From contig APJZ01000002.1 of the NCBI GenBank assembly GCA_000387965.1, positions 150,001 to 182,000 on the forward strand: a stretch of DNA of 32,000 nt, given 5' to 3'. Shown piece by piece: positions 1-17,251 of the stretch (positions are counted from its first letter, which is position 1; each line of letters opens with the position of its first letter). The notes under the pieces were generated by a model. That model made no database searches, was not told where the DNA came from, and worked only from the letters and a program-made list of their open reading frames with translations. Made by a program: the position numbers and the translations under genes. This DNA is from Candidatus Nanobsidianus stetteri. GTDB lineage: Archaea > Nanobdellota > Nanobdellia > Nanobdellales > Nanobdellaceae.

Positions 1-429
1 AATAATTTGGAAATATCAGAAGTTTTATCAAATATAAATAATGTTTTAAAAAGTGGTGGGGATTTAAGTAATTTATTAGATACATTATCAGAAAGTATAA
101 GAAATTTAGAAATGATTAAAAAGGATAGATTATCACAATTAAAGGTTACTACTTATACATATTATGGATTATTCTTTGGAGTCTTATTATCAATTATTGC
201 AGTATATTATTTAATAATTAATATAAAATCGTTTGGTCTTACATTTAATAAAGAAACATATTATGAATTAATAAATATTTATAGATTTTTATCATTTTTA
301 TTATTATTAATTAACGCGATTTTTACAGGTCTAGTTATTGGAAAACTTTCAAAGGGAACTATAAAGTCTGGTATAATTCATAGCATAATTTTAACAGCTA
401 TATCTATAGGATTTTTCTTTTTATTATAA
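1..429 (+). CDS. Type IV pilus/archaellum assembly membrane protein (FlaJ/TadC, GspF-like), C-terminal fragment; 5' end lies outside the window
   Basis: Frame 1 is open from nt 1, and the TTG at 7 is only the first possible start in the track. A helical soluble segment 'VLKSGGDLSNLLDTLSESIRN' is followed by three hydrophobic spans, like the repeated GspF/FlaJ unit. Motif memory only. Confidence 0.4.
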   Translation, partial: NNLEISEVLSNINNVLKSGGDLSNLLDTLSESIRNLEMIKKDRLSQLKVTTYTYYGLFFGVLLSIIAVYYLIINIKSFGLTFNKETYYELINIYRFLSFLLLLINAIFTGLVIGKLSKGTIKSGIIHSIILTAISIGFFFLL

Positions 430-7156: not shown

Positions 7157-7188
7157 ATTTTTATAAATATTTTCTTTAAGGATAATAT

Positions 7189-8394
7189 ATGAATAAGAAA
7201 ATATTATTGATTTTATTATCTTTTTTTATATTTTTATTAAGCAGAAATATTTTTTCTTATCAAATTTATTATTATAATCAAAGTTATATTCCGAATATTT
7301 CAATTACTCCATATTTATATAATAGTGAATTTTTAGCTGGACAAAATATTACAGGATATGTTTTGGTACAAAATAACGACCCATATTATTATCCTCAAAT
7401 ATTTTTGGGAATAATGTTAGTTAATGAAAATTCATCGTTTGGTACTCAAGTATTATTTGCAGAATTAAAGATGATATCAAATTTATTTCCATATGAAAAT
7501 TATACAGTAAATTTTTCATACCAAATTCCAGAAAACATATCTTCAGGAAATTATGAATTATTATTTTATTTATATACTGCTACAAAACATATAATAGGTA
7601 ATCCAAACAACTTTTCTACACCAATATATGAAAATATTTATTTAAGTAATCCAAATATTGGTAATTATCCATGGATTGCTATTGTAAGAAATCAAACAGA
7701 ATTAACAAATAATAATGGAATATTAAATTTAAACTTGAGTTTATATTCATTATATAATACTAATGCAACAATAAATATTAAACTTGCCGAGTGGGATGCT
7801 TTATTATATGGAGCAGCATACAATAATTCTCTTAATGTAGAATTAAATAAAGGATATAATTATATTTATGATAATATTAATGTATCAAATCTATATCCTG
7901 GAATATATTATATTTTAATTGAAGTATATTCTGATAATCTATTACAAGATCTATATATTATACCCTATTATGTTTATGGGAGAGCATTATTTTTTGATGG
8001 AATATACTTAAATAGTAATGGAACTCTATTGGTAATTTTATCTACATATCCAAATGATAATAAGAATCATAATTTATATAATGTTGGACTGACTATATAT
8101 TCTGATAATCAAAATTTTCAAGATTCAATTAATATAGGTAATTTACTGTACAATTCTACTGAATATATTTATATTTATGATGATGTTCCAATGATAAATG
8201 GAGAAGACCTATGTTTTAACCTAACATATCAAAAAGAAATAAATGGACTAACTTATCTTTCAAGTATATGTTATACATATTATTTAACAAATCAAACAAC
8301 AAGTTCCTATTCCAATTATAATACAGAAATAAAAGTTTTGATAGTTTTAGTAATAGTTGTCGGTTTAGTTATTTATTTGCTTATCAAAAAATAA
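7189..8394 (+). CDS. Asn/Tyr-rich surface protein with signal-like N-terminus and C-terminal membrane anchor
   Basis: N-terminal 'KKILLILLSFFIFLL' and C-terminal 'VLIVLVIVVGLVIYLLIKK'. The protein has repeated beta-sandwich-looking modules (e.g. 'NITGYVLVQNN...NYTVNFSYQIPENISSGNYELLFYLY') and many N-x-S/T sites. Confidence 0.6.
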   Translation: MNKKILLILLSFFIFLLSRNIFSYQIYYYNQSYIPNISITPYLYNSEFLAGQNITGYVLVQNNDPYYYPQIFLGIMLVNENSSFGTQVLFAELKMISNLFPYENYTVNFSYQIPENISSGNYELLFYLYTATKHIIGNPNNFSTPIYENIYLSNPNIGNYPWIAIVRNQTELTNNNGILNLNLSLYSLYNTNATINIKLAEWDALLYGAAYNNSLNVELNKGYNYIYDNINVSNLYPGIYYILIEVYSDNLLQDLYIIPYYVYGRALFFDGIYLNSNGTLLVILSTYPNDNKNHNLYNVGLTIYSDNQNFQDSINIGNLLYNSTEYIYIYDDVPMINGEDLCFNLTYQKEINGLTYLSSICYTYYLTNQTTSSYSNYNTEIKVLIVLVIVVGLVIYLLIKK

Positions 8395-8411
8395 TAAAAA
8401 TTTTATAAATT

Positions 8412-9089
8412 ATGCTATATAAAAATAATTTTATAATGCATAATAAAGGTAGAAATAAGGGAAGTATATTATATAAGTTATATAAGATTATAGTTGGGTT
8501 TATAATTGTTTTTGTTTATTTGCTGTCTTTATATTATATATATTCTCGAGATTTTGTTTGCCAATGTGTCTCCTATGAATATACTACTCAGACTATTGTC
8601 GTGGCAACCGTTACATCTACAGTTACAGTTACATCTACATATACAGATATTAGTACAGTTTATACAACGGTAACTAATACAGTCTATAATACAGTCACTT
8701 CCACAACCTATAATACAGTAACGGAGACAACAACAGTAACTAATACAGTCTATACAACAGCGACAAGTACAGTATATGTAACAAATGTCGTAACGCAAAC
8801 TGTATATGGTATATCAACTACAACTAGTACATTAACTACTACTTCAACTTCAACTGTTTCAGTAACAGCTACAAACACAATAACTACTACGTCAATAGTT
8901 TCGACTACGATTACTACAACAACAAGTTCTACAAGTACTGTGTGGAGTACGATATATACAACAACTACTAATACTATAACAACTACTAGTACAGTTACAA
9001 CCACATCAACTGTCTATACAACTACAACATCTACTATAACTTCAACTGTTACGGCCGATCAAACTTATTATACTTTAATACAATCATAA
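8412..9089 (+). CDS. Thr/Val alternating-repeat surface protein, paralog 1 (225 aa)
   Basis: A basic N-terminus and hydrophobic span are followed by 'CQC', then about 170 aa with Thr at roughly every second residue (TVTSTVTVTSTYT..., TVYNTVTSTTYNTVT). It shares near-identical DNA blocks with the next gene. Confidence 0.65.
   Translation: MLYKNNFIMHNKGRNKGSILYKLYKIIVGFIIVFVYLLSLYYIYSRDFVCQCVSYEYTTQTIVVATVTSTVTVTSTYTDISTVYTTVTNTVYNTVTSTTYNTVTETTTVTNTVYTTATSTVYVTNVVTQTVYGISTTTSTLTTTSTSTVSVTATNTITTTSIVSTTITTTTSSTSTVWSTIYTTTTNTITTTSTVTTTSTVYTTTTSTITSTVTADQTYYTLIQS
8679..8749 (+). repeat. Copy A of a 71-nt block shared between the two Thr-repeat genes
   Basis: Hand alignment with 9355-9425 shows 2 mismatches in 71 nt, with the first 45 nt identical. 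A second 18-nt identical block lies at 8605-8622 and 9305-9322. Confidence 0.85.
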
Positions 9090-9090
9090 G

Positions 9091-10209
9091 ATGAATACTA
9101 ATGCCAAAATAAAAAGGATTTTAAAATATATGTTAATTTTAATATTATTTATAAAAATATTCAATGTCACCTATAGTCAGTATGCTTGCGGTTGTTTTAC
9201 TTCGACAAATGGATGTAAATATTGTTATGTATTGCCGACTGTGTGTGCAGAGACATGTACAGTTACGCAAACTAATACAATATATGTCACCAATACTGTT
9301 ACAACAACCGTTACATCTACAGCTACTAGCACTATATTTACGACAGTCACATATACAGTCTATAATACAGTCACTTCCACAACCTATAATACAGTAACGA
9401 AGACAGCAACAGTAACTAATACAGTATCTACGGCAACTATTACATCAACAATTACAAATACAGCTACATCTATTATTTATACATCAACATCAAAAGCATA
9501 TACAACAGTAACTAATATACAAACAGTTACTTCAAGAGTTTCCACATTAACTGTTACATATACTGTAACTTCAACTTCAACAATTGCTAGTGGACAAACA
9601 TATACTATAACTTCAACAGTTACAACTACATCAACAATTTATTCAACTGTAACTAATACTCAATATACAACATCAACAGTTACAACTACATCTACCATTA
9701 CAAATTATGTAACTACTATGACAACTACTACTCTTATATATAATTCTATCATATATTTGCAAGGAATTTTGAATATCAATTCTATTAATCAAACTTTCTA
9801 TAGATCAATTAGTTTCCCTGTACAGTCTGGAAATACAATATTTTATTTAAATATAACAAATTCTGGTAACGCAACAATTAACAATATAACATTATCTTTT
9901 TCAGTTATAGGAAATAGTGTAATTTTATCATATAATAACTTACCTATAACAACTTTAAATAATATCACTATATCTTCTCCATTACAACCAAATAGTTCAT
10001 TAATAATACCATTTAAGATGCTCGTAATATCTCCAGGTTTAACGGATGTAGTTATAAAAGTTTATGTAAATGGACAATATATAGGATATGCAGATTATAA
10101 ATTTGATGTTGAATTAGGGTCTTCTTCATCATCTTTGGTAGTTTCTGAAAATATAAACTATATATTGATATCTCTAGCAGGAATTTTAGGCCTGTTACTA
10201 TTAATATAA
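9091..10209 (+). CDS. Thr/Val alternating-repeat surface protein, paralog 2, with an Ig/CARDB-like C-terminal domain and membrane anchor (372 aa)
   Basis: It starts 1 nt after paralog 1. A signal-like N-terminus and a Cys cluster (CGC..C..C....C...C) are followed by a Thr repeat region of about 190 aa. Then come 'YLNITNSGNATINNITLSFSV...' (CARDB-like look) and the terminal anchor 'YILISLAGILGLLLLI'. Confidence 0.7.
   Translation: MNTNAKIKRILKYMLILILFIKIFNVTYSQYACGCFTSTNGCKYCYVLPTVCAETCTVTQTNTIYVTNTVTTTVTSTATSTIFTTVTYTVYNTVTSTTYNTVTKTATVTNTVSTATITSTITNTATSIIYTSTSKAYTTVTNIQTVTSRVSTLTVTYTVTSTSTIASGQTYTITSTVTTTSTIYSTVTNTQYTTSTVTTTSTITNYVTTMTTTTLIYNSIIYLQGILNINSINQTFYRSISFPVQSGNTIFYLNITNSGNATINNITLSFSVIGNSVILSYNNLPITTLNNITISSPLQPNSSLIIPFKMLVISPGLTDVVIKVYVNGQYIGYADYKFDVELGSSSSSLVVSENINYILISLAGILGLLLLI
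9355..9425 (+). repeat. Copy B of the 71-nt shared block
   Basis: See copy A. It encodes 'TVYNTVTSTTYNTVT(K/E)T(A/T)TVTNTV' in both proteins. Confidence 0.85.
9613..9692 (+). repeat. Internal direct repeat with 60-nt (20-codon) period inside paralog 2
   Basis: 'tcaacagttacaactacatc' occurs identically at 9613-9632 and 9673-9692 (protein 'STVTTTST'). Confidence 0.8.
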
Positions 10210-10250
10210 AATAACAAATTGTTTAAAAAAATTATTATAATTATTAGTTT

Positions 10251-11444
10251 ATGAATGTAAAAGGTATACTTGCAGTATTAATAATTGTTTTAATAATTTT
10301 TGGAATAATACATTATTTAATTTATCAAAGTAAAACATATGGTAATGGAAATATATTAAAATTAGTAATATATAATCCAACAAACTGTACTGTTTATTCG
10401 CCATTTCAGCAAGAAATATATATAAATAGTTCTATAATGAAAGAATATAAAATAAATGAAAATGGCTCAAATGTTTTCTTCTTTATAAATTTAAGTAATA
10501 TTACAGGATCAATTTTATATTCCTGGTTTGCAGGATACTATAATAATTATTCCATTTGGTGGGTAAGATTGCCAACTCCAATCTCTCCTTATTCAAATAT
10601 TACAATATATATGTATATAGGACCTGTGGGAGAAAATTATTATGAAGAATATTCTCCTTATGTTGGTATTTCATCTTATGTATATAATAATTATAGCTGG
10701 GGACCCTTAAGTATTTATGATAATGGACAATTTGTATTTGATTTTTATGGTTGGTTTTATGATACAAGAGATAATTGGATCTTAAATGTTGAAAATGGAA
10801 ATTATTTCCCAACACCAACTATTAATGGAATTGAAATGATAAATTATTCATTATCTCAAGGATCTTACATAGAACCTCCAAATGATGGAAGTATTCCAAA
10901 TATACCAATAATTATAGAGGAAGGATGGTATTACAATGGAGAAGCTGACGCAAATGTAATTTCTATGTATGGTGGAAAATCAGTCACATATGCGGCAGGA
11001 GCAAATATGTTTGGCGGATATACACCAACATTATTAAATTCTATATTTGTACAATATGAATATTATAATTTACAACCCGCAATATATATTTCGTATGCTA
11101 ACGAAGAAGCTCCTATACAATTATATGAAGGGCCATTTATAAATAAAAATCAGTCATATATTTATTCATACTTTTTAGTTAACTTTTGCAATAATACATA
11201 TATACAGGCCGGATATCTTGCAGTGAATAATACTCCGCCAATTTCCCTATTAGGAACCTTAGAAAATACTAATCAAACTTTAAAAATAGGAATCGATAGA
11301 AACCTTTTATCAGGAGATTACTTTTCCATTAATTCTGGAAGTGGTCCCCAATCAACATCTTCGCAATCTATATATTGGGTTGTTGGAAGAACATATCCAC
11401 CAGATGGAATTATGCCAGAAGTTTATATAGAAAGTTTATCATAA
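10251..11444 (+). CDS. N-terminally anchored extracellular protein, DUF2341/concanavalin-like lectin-type (tentative)
   Basis: An N-terminal TM 'GILAVLIIVLIIFGIIHYLIY' is present. 'NGSNVFFF...ILYSWFAGYYNNYSIWWVRLPTPISPYSNITIYMYIG' resembles the DUF2341 signature (dG.D.rF...l.yWiE....vWVkvp.i....tiyiYYG). Confidence 0.45.
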   Translation: MNVKGILAVLIIVLIIFGIIHYLIYQSKTYGNGNILKLVIYNPTNCTVYSPFQQEIYINSSIMKEYKINENGSNVFFFINLSNITGSILYSWFAGYYNNYSIWWVRLPTPISPYSNITIYMYIGPVGENYYEEYSPYVGISSYVYNNYSWGPLSIYDNGQFVFDFYGWFYDTRDNWILNVENGNYFPTPTINGIEMINYSLSQGSYIEPPNDGSIPNIPIIIEEGWYYNGEADANVISMYGGKSVTYAAGANMFGGYTPTLLNSIFVQYEYYNLQPAIYISYANEEAPIQLYEGPFINKNQSYIYSYFLVNFCNNTYIQAGYLAVNNTPPISLLGTLENTNQTLKIGIDRNLLSGDYFSINSGSGPQSTSSQSIYWVVGRTYPPDGIMPEVYIESLS

Positions 11445-11483
11445 ATAATCTAGCTTTTTAAATCTTCTTAAGATAAATCAATA

Positions 11484-12680
11484 ATGAAAAATTTATTTAG
11501 GATTATTGATATTTTAAAGAAAAATAGGATAATAAATAAATTGTATGGGTTTATAAAAAAATATCCTTTTTATATAATTTTAGGTATTTTATTATTAATT
11601 TACACTTATCAGACAGTTTCTGTATTTTATCCAATAAATTCATATATTTCAGACGAAGTATGGTATGCTCCATCTTCATATAATATTATGACAAAAATAT
11701 TTCATTTAAATATAAATCAAACTGTTCCATTTCCTTCTGGAAAAGATTTGACCAATTATTTTAATCTTGAACATCCTCCTTTAGCAAAATATATAATTGG
11801 TGTCTTTATATATTTTTTAGGATATAATTATTGGGTTTGGAGGATTCCTAGTTGGATATTGGGTGATTTAATAATAATTTTATCGTTTTTAATAACTAGA
11901 AAAATTGTTGGTAATAGTATATTTGGAAATATTGCGGGAATAATTACTTCAGTTTTGATTATTTCTGATCCAAATATGTGGGTAATGCATGGTATAGCCA
12001 CGTTAGATATATATGTATCATTCTTTTCTTTATTATCATTGTATTACTTAATAAAAGACGATATATTAAAATCATCTATATCCTTTGGATTAGCATTTTC
12101 TTCAAAATTTCCTGGAGCATTTTTAATATTTCCTCTTTTATATTATATTAAAGGAATTAATATAAGTAGAATAAAAAGATTTCTCTATGTAGTTATATTA
12201 CCATTATTAGTATATCTATCTTTAAATCTTCCCTTAATTATATATTTTGGATTTTCTAGTTGGTTTAATCAAAGTTTTTTAGGTGCATTAGAATGGGATA
12301 TTACATCTGGTCATATTGTAAATGCCCCAAATCAAATTTCTTCACCATGGCAATGGTTGTTAAATATTCACCCATTTGATTTAGGAACATATTCTGGAAA
12401 TGATCTTTACTTAAATAGTTTTCATGCATTAGTAAATAATTATATTATGATACTCTGGCTAATTTTAACGCCTTTAATATTTATATTAAAAGATAAAAAA
12501 GTTACAGTTTCTTATTTATATCCCCTATCAATTTATTTAGGATTTTTCTTAGTATATTTCTTAGGTAATACAACAATATTTACATATTATATTACAGATT
12601 TTATGCCAATGGTTTATGTATATGTAGTTTCCTCTCTATTTTTACTGGGATTAAGATATTATAAAAATTTAAATCAATAA
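11484..12680 (+). CDS. GT-C glycosyltransferase of the PMT/GT39-like family (polyprenyl-phosphate-mannose:protein O-mannosyltransferase-like)
   Basis: A polytopic membrane protein. The 'DE' dipeptide lies in the first loop after TM1 ('YISDEVWYAP', nt 11652-11657). It is followed by 'EHPPLAKYIIG' (nt 11769-11792), matching yeast PMT 'FDEVHFGKF ... DVHPPLAKML'. At 398 aa it is shorter than eukaryotic PMTs and has no MIR domain. Confidence 0.7.
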   Translation: MKNLFRIIDILKKNRIINKLYGFIKKYPFYIILGILLLIYTYQTVSVFYPINSYISDEVWYAPSSYNIMTKIFHLNINQTVPFPSGKDLTNYFNLEHPPLAKYIIGVFIYFLGYNYWVWRIPSWILGDLIIILSFLITRKIVGNSIFGNIAGIITSVLIISDPNMWVMHGIATLDIYVSFFSLLSLYYLIKDDILKSSISFGLAFSSKFPGAFLIFPLLYYIKGINISRIKRFLYVVILPLLVYLSLNLPLIIYFGFSSWFNQSFLGALEWDITSGHIVNAPNQISSPWQWLLNIHPFDLGTYSGNDLYLNSFHALVNNYIMILWLILTPLIFILKDKKVTVSYLYPLSIYLGFFLVYFLGNTTIFTYYITDFMPMVYVYVVSSLFLLGLRYYKNLNQ

Positions 12681-12685
12681 TTAAG

Positions 12686-12760
12686 CGGACCCGGGGGGAT
12701 TCGAACCCCCGACCTACGGCTTAGGAGGCCGTCGCTCTATCCATGCTGAGCTACGGGTCC
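12686..12760 (-). tRNA. tRNA-Arg (anticodon CCU)
   Basis: The reverse complement folds with acceptor GGACCCG/CGGGTCC, D arm GCTC-AGCATGGATA-GAGC, anticodon stem ACGGC/GCCGT with loop CUCCUAA, T arm GGGGG-TTCGAAT-CCCCC, and discriminator G. Confidence 0.9.
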
Positions 12761-12874
12761 TTTCTAATTTACTTCAAATTATCTTTTATTAAATTTTGAA
12801 TTTTTCTTTATTATAATAAACTAAGTCTTTTAAAGTCAAAAATTTATAAATATCAATATTCTATTAGATTAGTT

Positions 12875-13342
12875 ATGAAGGGCATATCTCCAATTATTGC
12901 AACGATACTATTAATTGTAATGACAGTAGCAATAGCAGGATTAATGTATGCATGGTTATCTGGAATGTTTTCTTCATTAACAACATCTACTTCACAACAA
13001 GTTATTCAAGCTACGCAATTAACATCTTTTAATGTACCAAAGATGTTTATTTCTAATGGTAATATATATGCAATAATATATAATAATGGAAATGTGCCAA
13101 TTAATGCTAATAATATGACTATAACAGCCCAAGAATTTTGGGCTTCAAATAATACATACGATGGTATTACTTATGTTTGTTCAGCATCATCAGGTATAAT
13201 TACTTCAGGTCAACAAAGTACAATAACTTTATCATGTAATCCTACTAGTTTAGTCACTAACTGGAATTCTGGAATTTATTATTATTTATTTACATTTGTA
13301 TATAATGGGGTATCTGTTCAAGCAACATTACCTCCATCATAA
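12875..13342 (+). CDS. Archaeal type IV pilin-like protein (class III signal peptide, DUF361-type N-terminus)
   Basis: 'MKG/ISPIIATILLIVMTVAIAGLMYAWLSG' shows a short basic leader ending KG, then a conserved hydrophobic helix typical of PibD/FlaK substrates. The remainder is Ser/Thr/Asn-rich. Confidence 0.75.
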   Translation: MKGISPIIATILLIVMTVAIAGLMYAWLSGMFSSLTTSTSQQVIQATQLTSFNVPKMFISNGNIYAIIYNNGNVPINANNMTITAQEFWASNNTYDGITYVCSASSGIITSGQQSTITLSCNPTSLVTNWNSGIYYYLFTFVYNGVSVQATLPPS

Positions 13343-16855: not shown

Positions 16856-17251
16856 TTATACTAATATAGCATTTACTCCTTCATTCTTTGCAATTTCATA
16901 TTGCTTTTTATCAGATGTTACTAACTCAAGGTTCTTTGATTTGGCTAATGCAATGAACAAAGAGTCATAAATAGTTATTTTATTTCTATTAGCGATTTTA
17001 AATGCTTCAATCAAATATTCATCTTGGTTTACAATTATTATAGCTTCACCTTTTAATAAGTCATAAAGTATTTTAGTTGCAATGTCTTCTTTCATTTCTT
17101 CCATAAGGATCTTTTTCCATAAAGCATTGGCAACTTCTTTTATTGATAAATCTAGAGTTATAACTCCTTCTTCTATTATTTGAGCCACTTTTTCCCAGCC
17201 TTCCTCTTTAGAGAAAAATTTTATTAGGGAAGATGAATCAATGACTCTCAC
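16856..17251 (-). CDS. vapC: PIN-domain ribonuclease toxin VapC
   Basis: The N-terminal 'MRVIDSSSLIKFF' carries the first acidic residue. Later come 'IYDSLFIALA' and 'LVTSDKKQ', typical PIN acidic motifs. It is 131 aa and overlaps the upstream antitoxin gene by 14 nt. Confidence 0.8.
   Translation of the reverse strand: MRVIDSSSLIKFFSKEEGWEKVAQIIEEGVITLDLSIKEVANALWKKILMEEMKEDIATKILYDLLKGEAIIIVNQDEYLIEAFKIANRNKITIYDSLFIALAKSKNLELVTSDKKQYEIAKNEGVNAILV

Follow-up and report, generated by a model that had tools for sequence, protein, structure and literature searches.

A 32-kb stretch of contig APJZ01000002.1 of Candidatus Nanobsidianus stetteri (positions 150,001 to 182,000; hereafter the window) encodes a membrane glycosyltransferase (GT; 11484-12680, plus strand, 398 amino acids, aa) directly behind four genes for predicted surface proteins, ORF1 to ORF4 (ORF, open reading frame), two of which are extremely rich in threonine. 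From profile alignments and a structural model, the GT is best described as a minimal protein O-mannosyltransferase (PMT) core lacking a MIR domain, with a GT-C fold and of the PMT/GT39 type rather than the ArnT/GT83 type. We tentatively propose that it O-mannosylates its Thr-rich neighbors, which would make it a candidate archaeal protein O-mannosyltransferase; we give this reading a little less than an even chance.

In the mechanism we envisage, a dolichyl-phosphate-linked hexose, most likely mannose, would serve the GT as donor at the outer face of the membrane. With Asp57 (D57) acting as base, the GT would carry out an inverting transfer to Ser/Thr hydroxyls of proteins leaving the Sec translocon. 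The Thr-rich ectodomains of ORF2 and ORF3 would be the main clients and the product would be a dense, variable O-mannosyl coat on the symbiont.

A PMT-type glycosyltransferase behind two Thr-rich surface genes

In Pfam, the GT scores 36.1 bits against PMT_2 (gathering threshold 26.1) and 21.7 bits against PMT (PF02366; threshold 22.7), and PF02366 is precomputed for two of its nanoarchaeal relatives and for most of its crenarchaeal ones. An AlphaFold (AF2) model built on 42 homologues reached a pLDDT of 93 and a pTM of 0.91. Its top Foldseek matches in the Protein Data Bank (PDB), at prob 1.00 each, were Chaetomium Pmt4 (CtPmt4; E 3e-6 and the best TMq, 0.63), ArnT (E 6e-6 to 1e-5, TMq 0.56-0.59) and yeast Pmt1 and Pmt2 (ScPmt1/2); for yeast Pmt1, Pmt2 and Pmt4 together, E ranged from 6e-5 to 6e-4 and TMq from 0.36 to 0.41. 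ALG12 (E 2e-3, TMq 0.57) and, remotely, AglB (E 5e-3, TMq 0.49) followed. Since Foldseek ranks CtPmt4 and ArnT so closely, fold alone cannot separate GT39 from GT83.

Sequence profiles do separate them. A profile of the GT family searched against 177,635 PDB sequences matched PMTs only (CtPmt4 2e-8, ScPmt1 6e-4, ScPmt4 5e-3, ScPmt2 6e-3) and left ArnT unmatched even at E<=10; the single GT protein found no PDB match by phmmer, so that the family profile was required. By hhalign, the family aligned with a set of five MIR-less prokaryotic proteins carrying PMT, PMT_4TMC and PMT_2 at a Prob of 100% (E 5e-46, 335 columns, residues 21-385) and with one such protein at 99.5% (E 3e-23). The corresponding comparison with Escherichia coli K-12 ArnT gave a Prob of 17% (E 1.4e-3) across the N-terminal 145 columns only. 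Among NCBIfam models, no ArnT match to the GT appeared even at E<1, and the same pattern was seen across the archaeal family. The GT39-like character claimed in a preliminary description of this DNA is therefore borne out by the profile check, with no clustering with GT83.

These results bear on the possibility that the GT acts on a lipid head group or a non-protein polymer, like ArnT and RgtA-D (PMT_2), its place beside surface-protein genes being incidental. ArnT is, after all, the second-best structural match, and a Saccharolobus orthologue bears the UniRef name 'RgtA/B/C/D-like'. Yet the profile similarity to ArnT is weak and confined to the N-terminal columns, the family profile misses ArnT among PDB sequences, and nanoarchaea do not make their own lipids (Podar 2013). 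The lipid phenotype reported for the Sulfolobales gene agl1, discussed below, could moreover be an indirect envelope-stress response. We consider a lipid or other glycoconjugate acceptor very doubtful.

Sequence motifs place the GT near the PMTs as well. The acidic pair D57-E58 in loop 1 (codons at 11652-11657, plus strand), the candidate catalytic base, is invariant in 42 family members and aligns with its DE counterpart in CtPmt4 and in PMT-type proteins of prokaryotes. In the motif E96-H-P-P-L-A-K-Y103 (11769-11792, plus strand), P98, P99, L100 and K102 are invariant in the 42 sequences and E96 and H97 nearly so; in the alignment, ScPmt1 has the same HPPLAK at residues 98-103. The nearly invariant R120 (11841-11843, plus strand) pairs with ScPmt1 R138, as counted from the alignment, a residue that we take to be essential in the yeast enzyme. 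The N-terminus holds eight Lys/Arg residues within residues 1-27, followed by the first transmembrane (TM) segment and then the DE loop. By the positive-inside rule, the DE pair is thus predicted to lie in the first extracytoplasmic loop. Both motifs had been recognized beforehand, and the extracytoplasmic, GT-C setting then raised for D57-E58 is supported by the positive N-terminus, TM1 and the AF2 model.

The C-terminal part is collinear with PMT_4TMC. Residues 244-310 pair with CtPmt4 550-616, and the five proteins aligned by hhalign carry PF02366, PF16192 and PF13231, while the GT itself shows no direct Pfam match to PF16192. The MIR domain is missing, as the alignment skips from CtPmt4 301 to 550 and the protein is merely 398 aa long. 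Bacterial PMTs also lack MIR, so its absence rules out the eukaryotic subtype only.

The candidate substrates are ORF2 (8412-9089, plus strand, 225 aa, N-terminally anchored) and its paralogue ORF3 (9091-10209, plus strand, 372 aa). Threonine makes up 35.6% of ORF2 and 23.7% of ORF3, compared with 3.5% across 26 further ORFs of the window, and among all ORFs of at least 80 aa in the 32 kb the Thr-rich stretch is confined to these two. The Thr/Ser-rich ectodomain of ORF2 spans residues 58-215 (8583-9056) and is 62% Ser plus Thr. ORF3 is composed, in order, of a signal peptide, a Cys motif, a Thr-rich region (approximately residues 48-216, 9232-9738), a beta-rich domain and a C-terminal TM anchor. 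Both ectodomains consist of Thr/Ser to about one half and lack proline and charged residues. As they lie downstream of signal or anchor helices, the Thr-rich segments are predicted to be extracytoplasmic. A 138-nucleotide (nt) segment common to ORF2 (8618-8755) and ORF3 (9294-9431) is 83% identical, which identifies the two as paralogues. The underlying DNA consists of degenerate low-complexity T-x-T stretches with periods of 6, 12, 18 and 24 nt, so the earlier label of 'Thr-repeat' proteins holds for their extreme Thr richness and not for any crisp tandem array.

Seventeen complete further loci from metagenomes always contain exactly two Thr-rich ORFs, with the 1-nt spacer kept and in-frame changes of length. 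The ORF2 homologues in these loci are 155-411 aa long and 33-47% Thr, all in frame, and those of ORF3 306-557 aa and 21-38% Thr. The C-terminal half of ORF3 is still 54% identical in a distant relative whose GT is 63% identical. The variation in length points to gain and loss of repeats, or else to recombination of one paralogue with the other. We considered whether these ORFs might be artifacts of (ACN)n DNA and rejected the idea: they are open, in frame and conserved in their ends and spacing in the 17 other loci, and with such in-frame length polymorphism they are best taken as real genes. Membrane-proximal mucin-like linkers were likewise rejected as an explanation, given that the regions hold no Pro and that the ORF3 region lies at the end away from the membrane anchor. 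Several metagenome contigs break off inside ORF2 or ORF3 homologues.

A metagenome scan with an alignment of the nanoarchaeal clade returned 31 loci, and the order ligA-ligB-ORF1-ORF2-ORF3-ORF4-GT was kept in every one with enough upstream DNA. In the lineage with 63% GT identity the five-gene block is intact and both flanks differ, with ~3 kb including a Thy1 gene inserted upstream and other genes downstream. Evolutionary rates were compared in 17 loci whose GT is at least 91% identical to that of the window, using the median identity to the window. The medians were 98% for ligA, 96% for ligB, 94% for the GT, 92% for ORF1, 88% for ORF4, 74% for ORF3, 70% for the pilin gene that follows the GT and 68% for ORF2, the fastest-evolving gene of the block. 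With medians of 68-74% against 94% for the GT, the Thr-rich proteins and the pilin are its fast-evolving members. Elevated non-synonymous diversity has been reported for nanoarchaeal surface proteins (Jarett 2018), and such evolution is consistent with it.

Conserved order could also arise without any dedicated pairing, if the GT were a general housekeeping surface glycosyltransferase and its position simply gene order conserved among related small genomes. In all but one lineage the syntenic loci do come from close relatives (GT identity 85-98%), the Sulfolobales orthologues have other neighbors, and each spacer of the block could hold its own promoter. The neighbor test in other lineages was also not significant: among the 81 loci listed outside the nanoarchaeal clade, 3 of 144 adjacent genes were Thr-rich and 5 of 699 other genes. 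Outgroup synteny was drawn from a contig scan that listed at least 80 loci, with no nanoarchaeal locus among those listed. However, the block stays intact in the 63%-identity lineage despite its rearranged flanks, and similar pairings occur in two unrelated archaeal phyla. In a Bathyarchaeia metagenome-assembled genome (MAG; L059, 5312-9080), two tandem signal-peptide proteins with 38-40% Thr are divergent from a 488-aa PMT_2 GT, and in an Aenigmatarchaeota MAG (L069, 2698-5729), a surface protein that combines a beta-propeller, a Thr-rich stalk and a TM anchor is encoded directly upstream of a 423-aa PMT_2 GT. On balance, we see little likelihood that the adjacency reflects no dedicated pairing. 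The co-occurrence of the GT with Thr-rich genes, a question of the preliminary description, thus holds across the Nanopusillus clade; it does not extend to the Sulfolobales orthologues and is not significant in the 81 other loci.

Orthology with Agl1 and a possible role in O-mannosylation

Outside the nanoarchaeal clade, the best matches of the GT are from Sulfolobales, at 46-51% identity over 88-96% of the query, other Thermoproteota being at ~30%. In a neighbor-joining tree of limited sampling (40 sequences, 351 columns, 200 bootstraps), the nanoarchaeal and Sulfolobales clades join with 100% bootstrap support and the joint clade is nested among Thermoproteota. The Sulfolobus acidocaldarius orthologue is followed by a nucleoside triphosphate (NTP)-transferase gene, a 393-aa epimerase-family gene and a BadF-type gene, and is identified as agl1 because these match the published cluster agl1(saci0421)-agl2-agl3-agl4. 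By these sequence criteria, the GT is an orthologue of Sulfolobales Agl1 (Saci_0421). To judge from the tree, the gene probably passed long ago between Sulfolobales and the nanoarchaeal symbionts of that lineage, and from its wide crenarchaeal distribution we infer that the transfer ran from host to symbiont. One further locus (L086, 2949-5150; contig GC 45%) has a GT (P0018) that falls in the Sulfolobales-type clade and is followed by a 733-aa protein with a pilin-like N-terminus (QSAMEY motif), weak Flg_new_2 matches and a long poly-Ser C-terminal tail.

Orthology with Agl1 opens a different route, on which the GT would resemble AglS of Haloferax volcanii: using a dolichyl-phosphate (Dol-P)-linked hexose at the outer face, it would add a late sugar to N-glycans, either on proteins or on the lipid-linked precursor. 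Its clients would then be the sequon-rich ORF1, ORF4 and the pilin instead of the Thr-rich proteins. The location of the Sulfolobales orthologue within the agl1-4 cluster is in line with this, and so are the N-X-S/T sequons of the neighbors, 17 in ORF1 (4.2 per 100 aa) and 13 in ORF4 (3.3 per 100 aa) against a background of 0.64 per 100 aa. Nevertheless, among solved and modeled families the GT is closest to protein O-mannosyltransferases, and the agl2-4 partners are missing from the nanoarchaeal block, no NTP-transferase, epimerase or BadF-type kinase gene adjoining the GT in the window or in related nanoarchaeal loci. GT-C fold enzymes use lipid-phosphate donors. The published proposal for Agl1, taken here from secondary citations, invokes UDP-sulfoquinovose and suits GT-C donor chemistry poorly. 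In the accessible literature we found no agl1 mutant with an N-glycan phenotype. We regard the N-glycan role as somewhat unlikely, though well worth keeping in view.

Several points weigh against O-mannosylation of the Thr-rich neighbors. The sequon density of ORF1 and ORF4 is 5-7 times the background, and adjacency fits an N-glycan role equally well. The GT falls 1 bit short of the Pfam PMT gathering threshold, its sole NCBIfam match is to an actinobacterial Pmt model at 44.7 bits, far below the cutoff of 800, and in Foldseek ArnT scores nearly as well as Pmt4. The neighbor test outside the nanoarchaea gave no significant enrichment, and in Sulfolobales the setting is DeoC-agl1-agl2(NTP transferase)-agl3(UDP-sulfoquinovose synthase)-agl4, without Thr-rich genes. 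In those citations Agl1 is only a proposed GT for adding sulfoquinovose to the N-glycan, the phenotype reported for deletion of Saci_0421 is fewer cyclopentane rings in the tetraether lipids rather than an O-glycan defect, and AglS, the one characterized archaeal PMT-related enzyme, places mannose on an N-linked glycan. Cells of the related N. acidilobi were stained by wheat germ agglutinin (WGA) and not by concanavalin A (ConA), a mannose/glucose lectin. In the tree, the nanoarchaeal sequences form a sister group of the Sulfolobales clade rather than a branch inside it, which leaves the direction of transfer deduced. Finally, transfer to Ser/Thr is something that we infer.

On the other side, O-mannosylation itself is known in Sulfolobus. 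There, a single O-linked mannose has been described on cytochrome b558/566 and putatively on thread T195, the transferase being called 'elusive'. Papers from 2021-2024 still use that term for the enzyme, so the earlier statement that the archaeal O-glycosyltransferase is unassigned stands; a 2026 review of S. acidocaldarius mentions no O-glycosylation enzyme. The PMT reading as such is not new. The PMT domain of Agl1 was noted by Lombard 2016, who raised archaeal O-mannosylation, and a 'dolichyl-phosphate mannose protein mannosyltransferase' homologue was listed for the nanoarchaeon Nst1 by Podar 2013.

The surface block and its surroundings

We take the window to come from a Nanopusillus-like nanoarchaeon that lives as an ectosymbiont on thermoacidophilic Crenarchaeota. 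Its GC content is ~25%, genes usual for a chromosome are present (wyosine synthesis, an ADP-forming acyl-CoA ligase, an ABC transporter, ribosomal protein S3Ae and a class I aminoacyl-tRNA synthetase), and the GT finds its nearest relatives (63-92% identity) in hot-spring metagenomes and in MAGs labeled Candidatus Nanopusillus sp. The five genes from ORF1 to the GT lie on the same strand with spacers of 17, 1, 41 and 39 nt in the ORF listing, and the coordinates and spacers given in the preliminary description match exactly on the plus strand. A Kyte-Doolittle scan places hydrophobic N-terminal segments at residues 5-23 of ORF1, 26-44 of ORF2, 10-28 of ORF3 and 6-24 of ORF4, with C-terminal anchors at residues 381-399 of ORF1 and 354-372 of ORF3. 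This agrees with the N-terminal signals or anchors claimed for the first four ORFs and the C-terminal anchors claimed for two. None of ORF1-4 has a family match in Pfam or NCBIfam.

ORF1 (7189-8394, plus strand, 401 aa) is a predicted type I surface protein with a signal peptide, an ectodomain and a C-terminal TM anchor. Close relatives match it at 90-94% identity and the distant relative at 55%, and an exhaustive search found, as other relatives, only N-terminal parts of hypothetical proteins of 1100-1400 aa, with no Pfam family. ORF4 (10251-11444, plus strand, 397 aa) is an N-terminally anchored surface protein. Its AF2 model has a pLDDT of 74, and its top Foldseek matches in the PDB were L-type lectins that bind mannose, namely VIP36, pea lectin, ERGIC-53 and Emp46/47 (TMt 0.55-0.67, E 5e-8 to 1e-6). 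By its model, ORF4 is a lectin-fold surface protein with a ConA-like, L-type-lectin beta-sandwich. The family is restricted to Nanopusillus and Nanobsidianus, with relatives that include proteins of N. acidilobi and Nanobsidianus stetteri, and many paralogues begin with class III pilin signals.

Past the GT, and convergent with it, a tRNA-Arg (CCT) was located by ARAGORN at 12685-12760 on the minus strand, 4 nt beyond the GT stop codon. A type IV pilin gene of the UpsA/UpsB family follows (12875-13342, plus strand, 155 aa), with the class III signal peptide MKG|ISPII...; both features had been foreseen in this order, and the N-terminal domain of the pilin matches TIGR02537 at E 8e-10. Against the NCBIfam model UpsA NF046073 the pilin aligns over its full length (E 4e-29, 101 bits), under the equivalog cutoff of 130, and this similarity indicates membership in the same family as UpsA without equivalog status. 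The gene lies 3' of the GT in all close relatives and not in the 63%-identity relative; its identity is 67-87% in relatives whose GT is 91-95% identical. UpsA of Sulfolobales mediates species-specific recognition of S-layer glycans (PMC7064770). The symbiont could use this pilin in a pilus that recognizes its host, and the gene is possibly a second one of crenarchaeal origin.

The block, with its tight same-strand spacing, had been called operon-like. The spacers at 7157-7188, 8395-8411, 10210-10250 and 11445-11483 hold A/T boxes ~20-30 nt before the start codons, every one with a box ~25 nt upstream of a start. Examples of TATA-like boxes are TTTTTATAAAT before ORF1 and TTTTTAAAT before the GT. 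Their spacing would suit separate leaderless transcripts, but at 75% AT such boxes are indistinguishable from chance. ORF2 and ORF3 are the sole pair that must share a transcript, the other spacers each holding an A/T box.

Two further observations concern the edges of the region. An ORF at the 5' edge of the window (7-429) has a weak, sub-threshold match to T2SSF (FlaJ/TadC-type pilus platform; E 4e-4), and from this match a pilus assembly gene may sit just upstream of the window. The segment 13343-16800, between the pilin and a conserved PIN-domain gene (16856-17251, minus strand), is unlike that in close relatives. Where loci L088-L092 have 151-aa and 83-aa genes and a gene for a 408-aa aminotransferase, the window has family-less genes of 228, 142, 298 and 125 aa. 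This segment is a variable island adjoining the surface block.

Beyond the GT itself, we are drawn to the company it keeps. Four kinds of surface gene are assembled in ~6 kb, namely those for fast-evolving proteins, a lectin-fold protein, a GT of apparent crenarchaeal origin and an UpsA-family pilin, and such a grouping is what host recognition by a nanoarchaeon would lead one to expect. It is tempting to take the argument further and suggest that the protein O-mannosyltransferase long sought in archaea is the Agl1/COG4346-type family, that Nanopusillus took it from Sulfolobales hosts, and that it is dedicated there to a hypervariable Thr-rich host-contact pair, with a lectin-fold adhesin and a glycan-recognition pilin of the UpsA type encoded alongside. 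This full scenario is, in our estimation, clearly improbable. If it is true, the symbiont would hold in this block a compact module for host recognition and surface disguise.

The GT family already bears the annotation GT39 or predicted PMT, and others have considered it as a possible archaeal O-mannosyltransferase. The novelty appears to lie in the conserved coupling of such a GT, within a nanoarchaeal symbiont, with a pair of hypervariable Thr-rich proteins, a lectin-fold protein and an UpsA-type pilin; the apparent crenarchaeal origin of the nanoarchaeal gene also appears to be new. No prior description of this coupling was found in the accessible literature, which is not proof of its absence. 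Archaeal O-glycosylation has been known for decades, and papers to 2024 name no enzyme for it. The locus does not solve that question. It is, however, the clearest natural pairing we found of a PMT-type enzyme with candidate substrates (33-47% and 21-38% Thr in the two homologue sets), and orthology points to S. acidocaldarius agl1 (Saci_0421) as a tractable gene, a deletion strain and O-mannose sites having been reported. Its value thus lies in a sharpened, cheaply testable hypothesis for the missing archaeal O-glycosyltransferase.

Comparison with known systems

Four systems invite comparison. ArnT, the lipid A aminoarabinosyltransferase of GT83, resembles the GT in its GT-C fold and in the acidic pair of its first periplasmic loop, and it draws on a polyprenyl-phosphate sugar donor. 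Unlike the GT, it carries a large C-terminal periplasmic domain (E. coli ArnT has 550 aa) and its acceptor is a lipid.

AglS of H. volcanii is, like the GT, archaeal and polytopic, and it is described as a distant relative of the PMTs. A search from a haloarchaeal relative for a link to AglS gave only six weak, uninformative PMT-type matches. AglS works with Dol-P-Man on the outer face and modifies surface glycoproteins, but its acceptor is an Asn-linked tetrasaccharide and not Ser/Thr.

The GT39 PMTs, that is, the fungal Pmt1/2/4 and actinobacterial Pmt, have in common with the GT the GT-C fold, the loop-1 DE, HPPLAK, the arginine aligned with R138 and a C-terminus collinear with PMT_4TMC. 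They are the only solved family that the GT family profile detects. Identity to the fungal PMTs is just 16-18%, and the GT is ~100 aa shorter than the bacterial PMTs, with which it shares the missing MIR domain.

Closest of all are Agl1 (Saci_0421) and its Sulfolobales orthologues, which are 370-400 aa long, 46-51% identical to the GT over more than 88% of the length and in one clade with it at 100% bootstrap. Sulfolobales Agl1 proteins are annotated as 'glycosyltransferase family 39 protein' or, by JGI, as 'predicted membrane-bound dolichyl-phosphate-mannose-protein mannosyltransferase'. For Agl1 itself, an N-glycan role has been proposed and a lipid phenotype reported. Agl1 and the GT share invariant positions at DE, N-x-EHPPL-x-K, WR, D162, D175 and K208. 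The two differ in context, as Agl1 is encoded in a sugar-nucleotide cluster whereas the GT stands behind four surface-protein genes.

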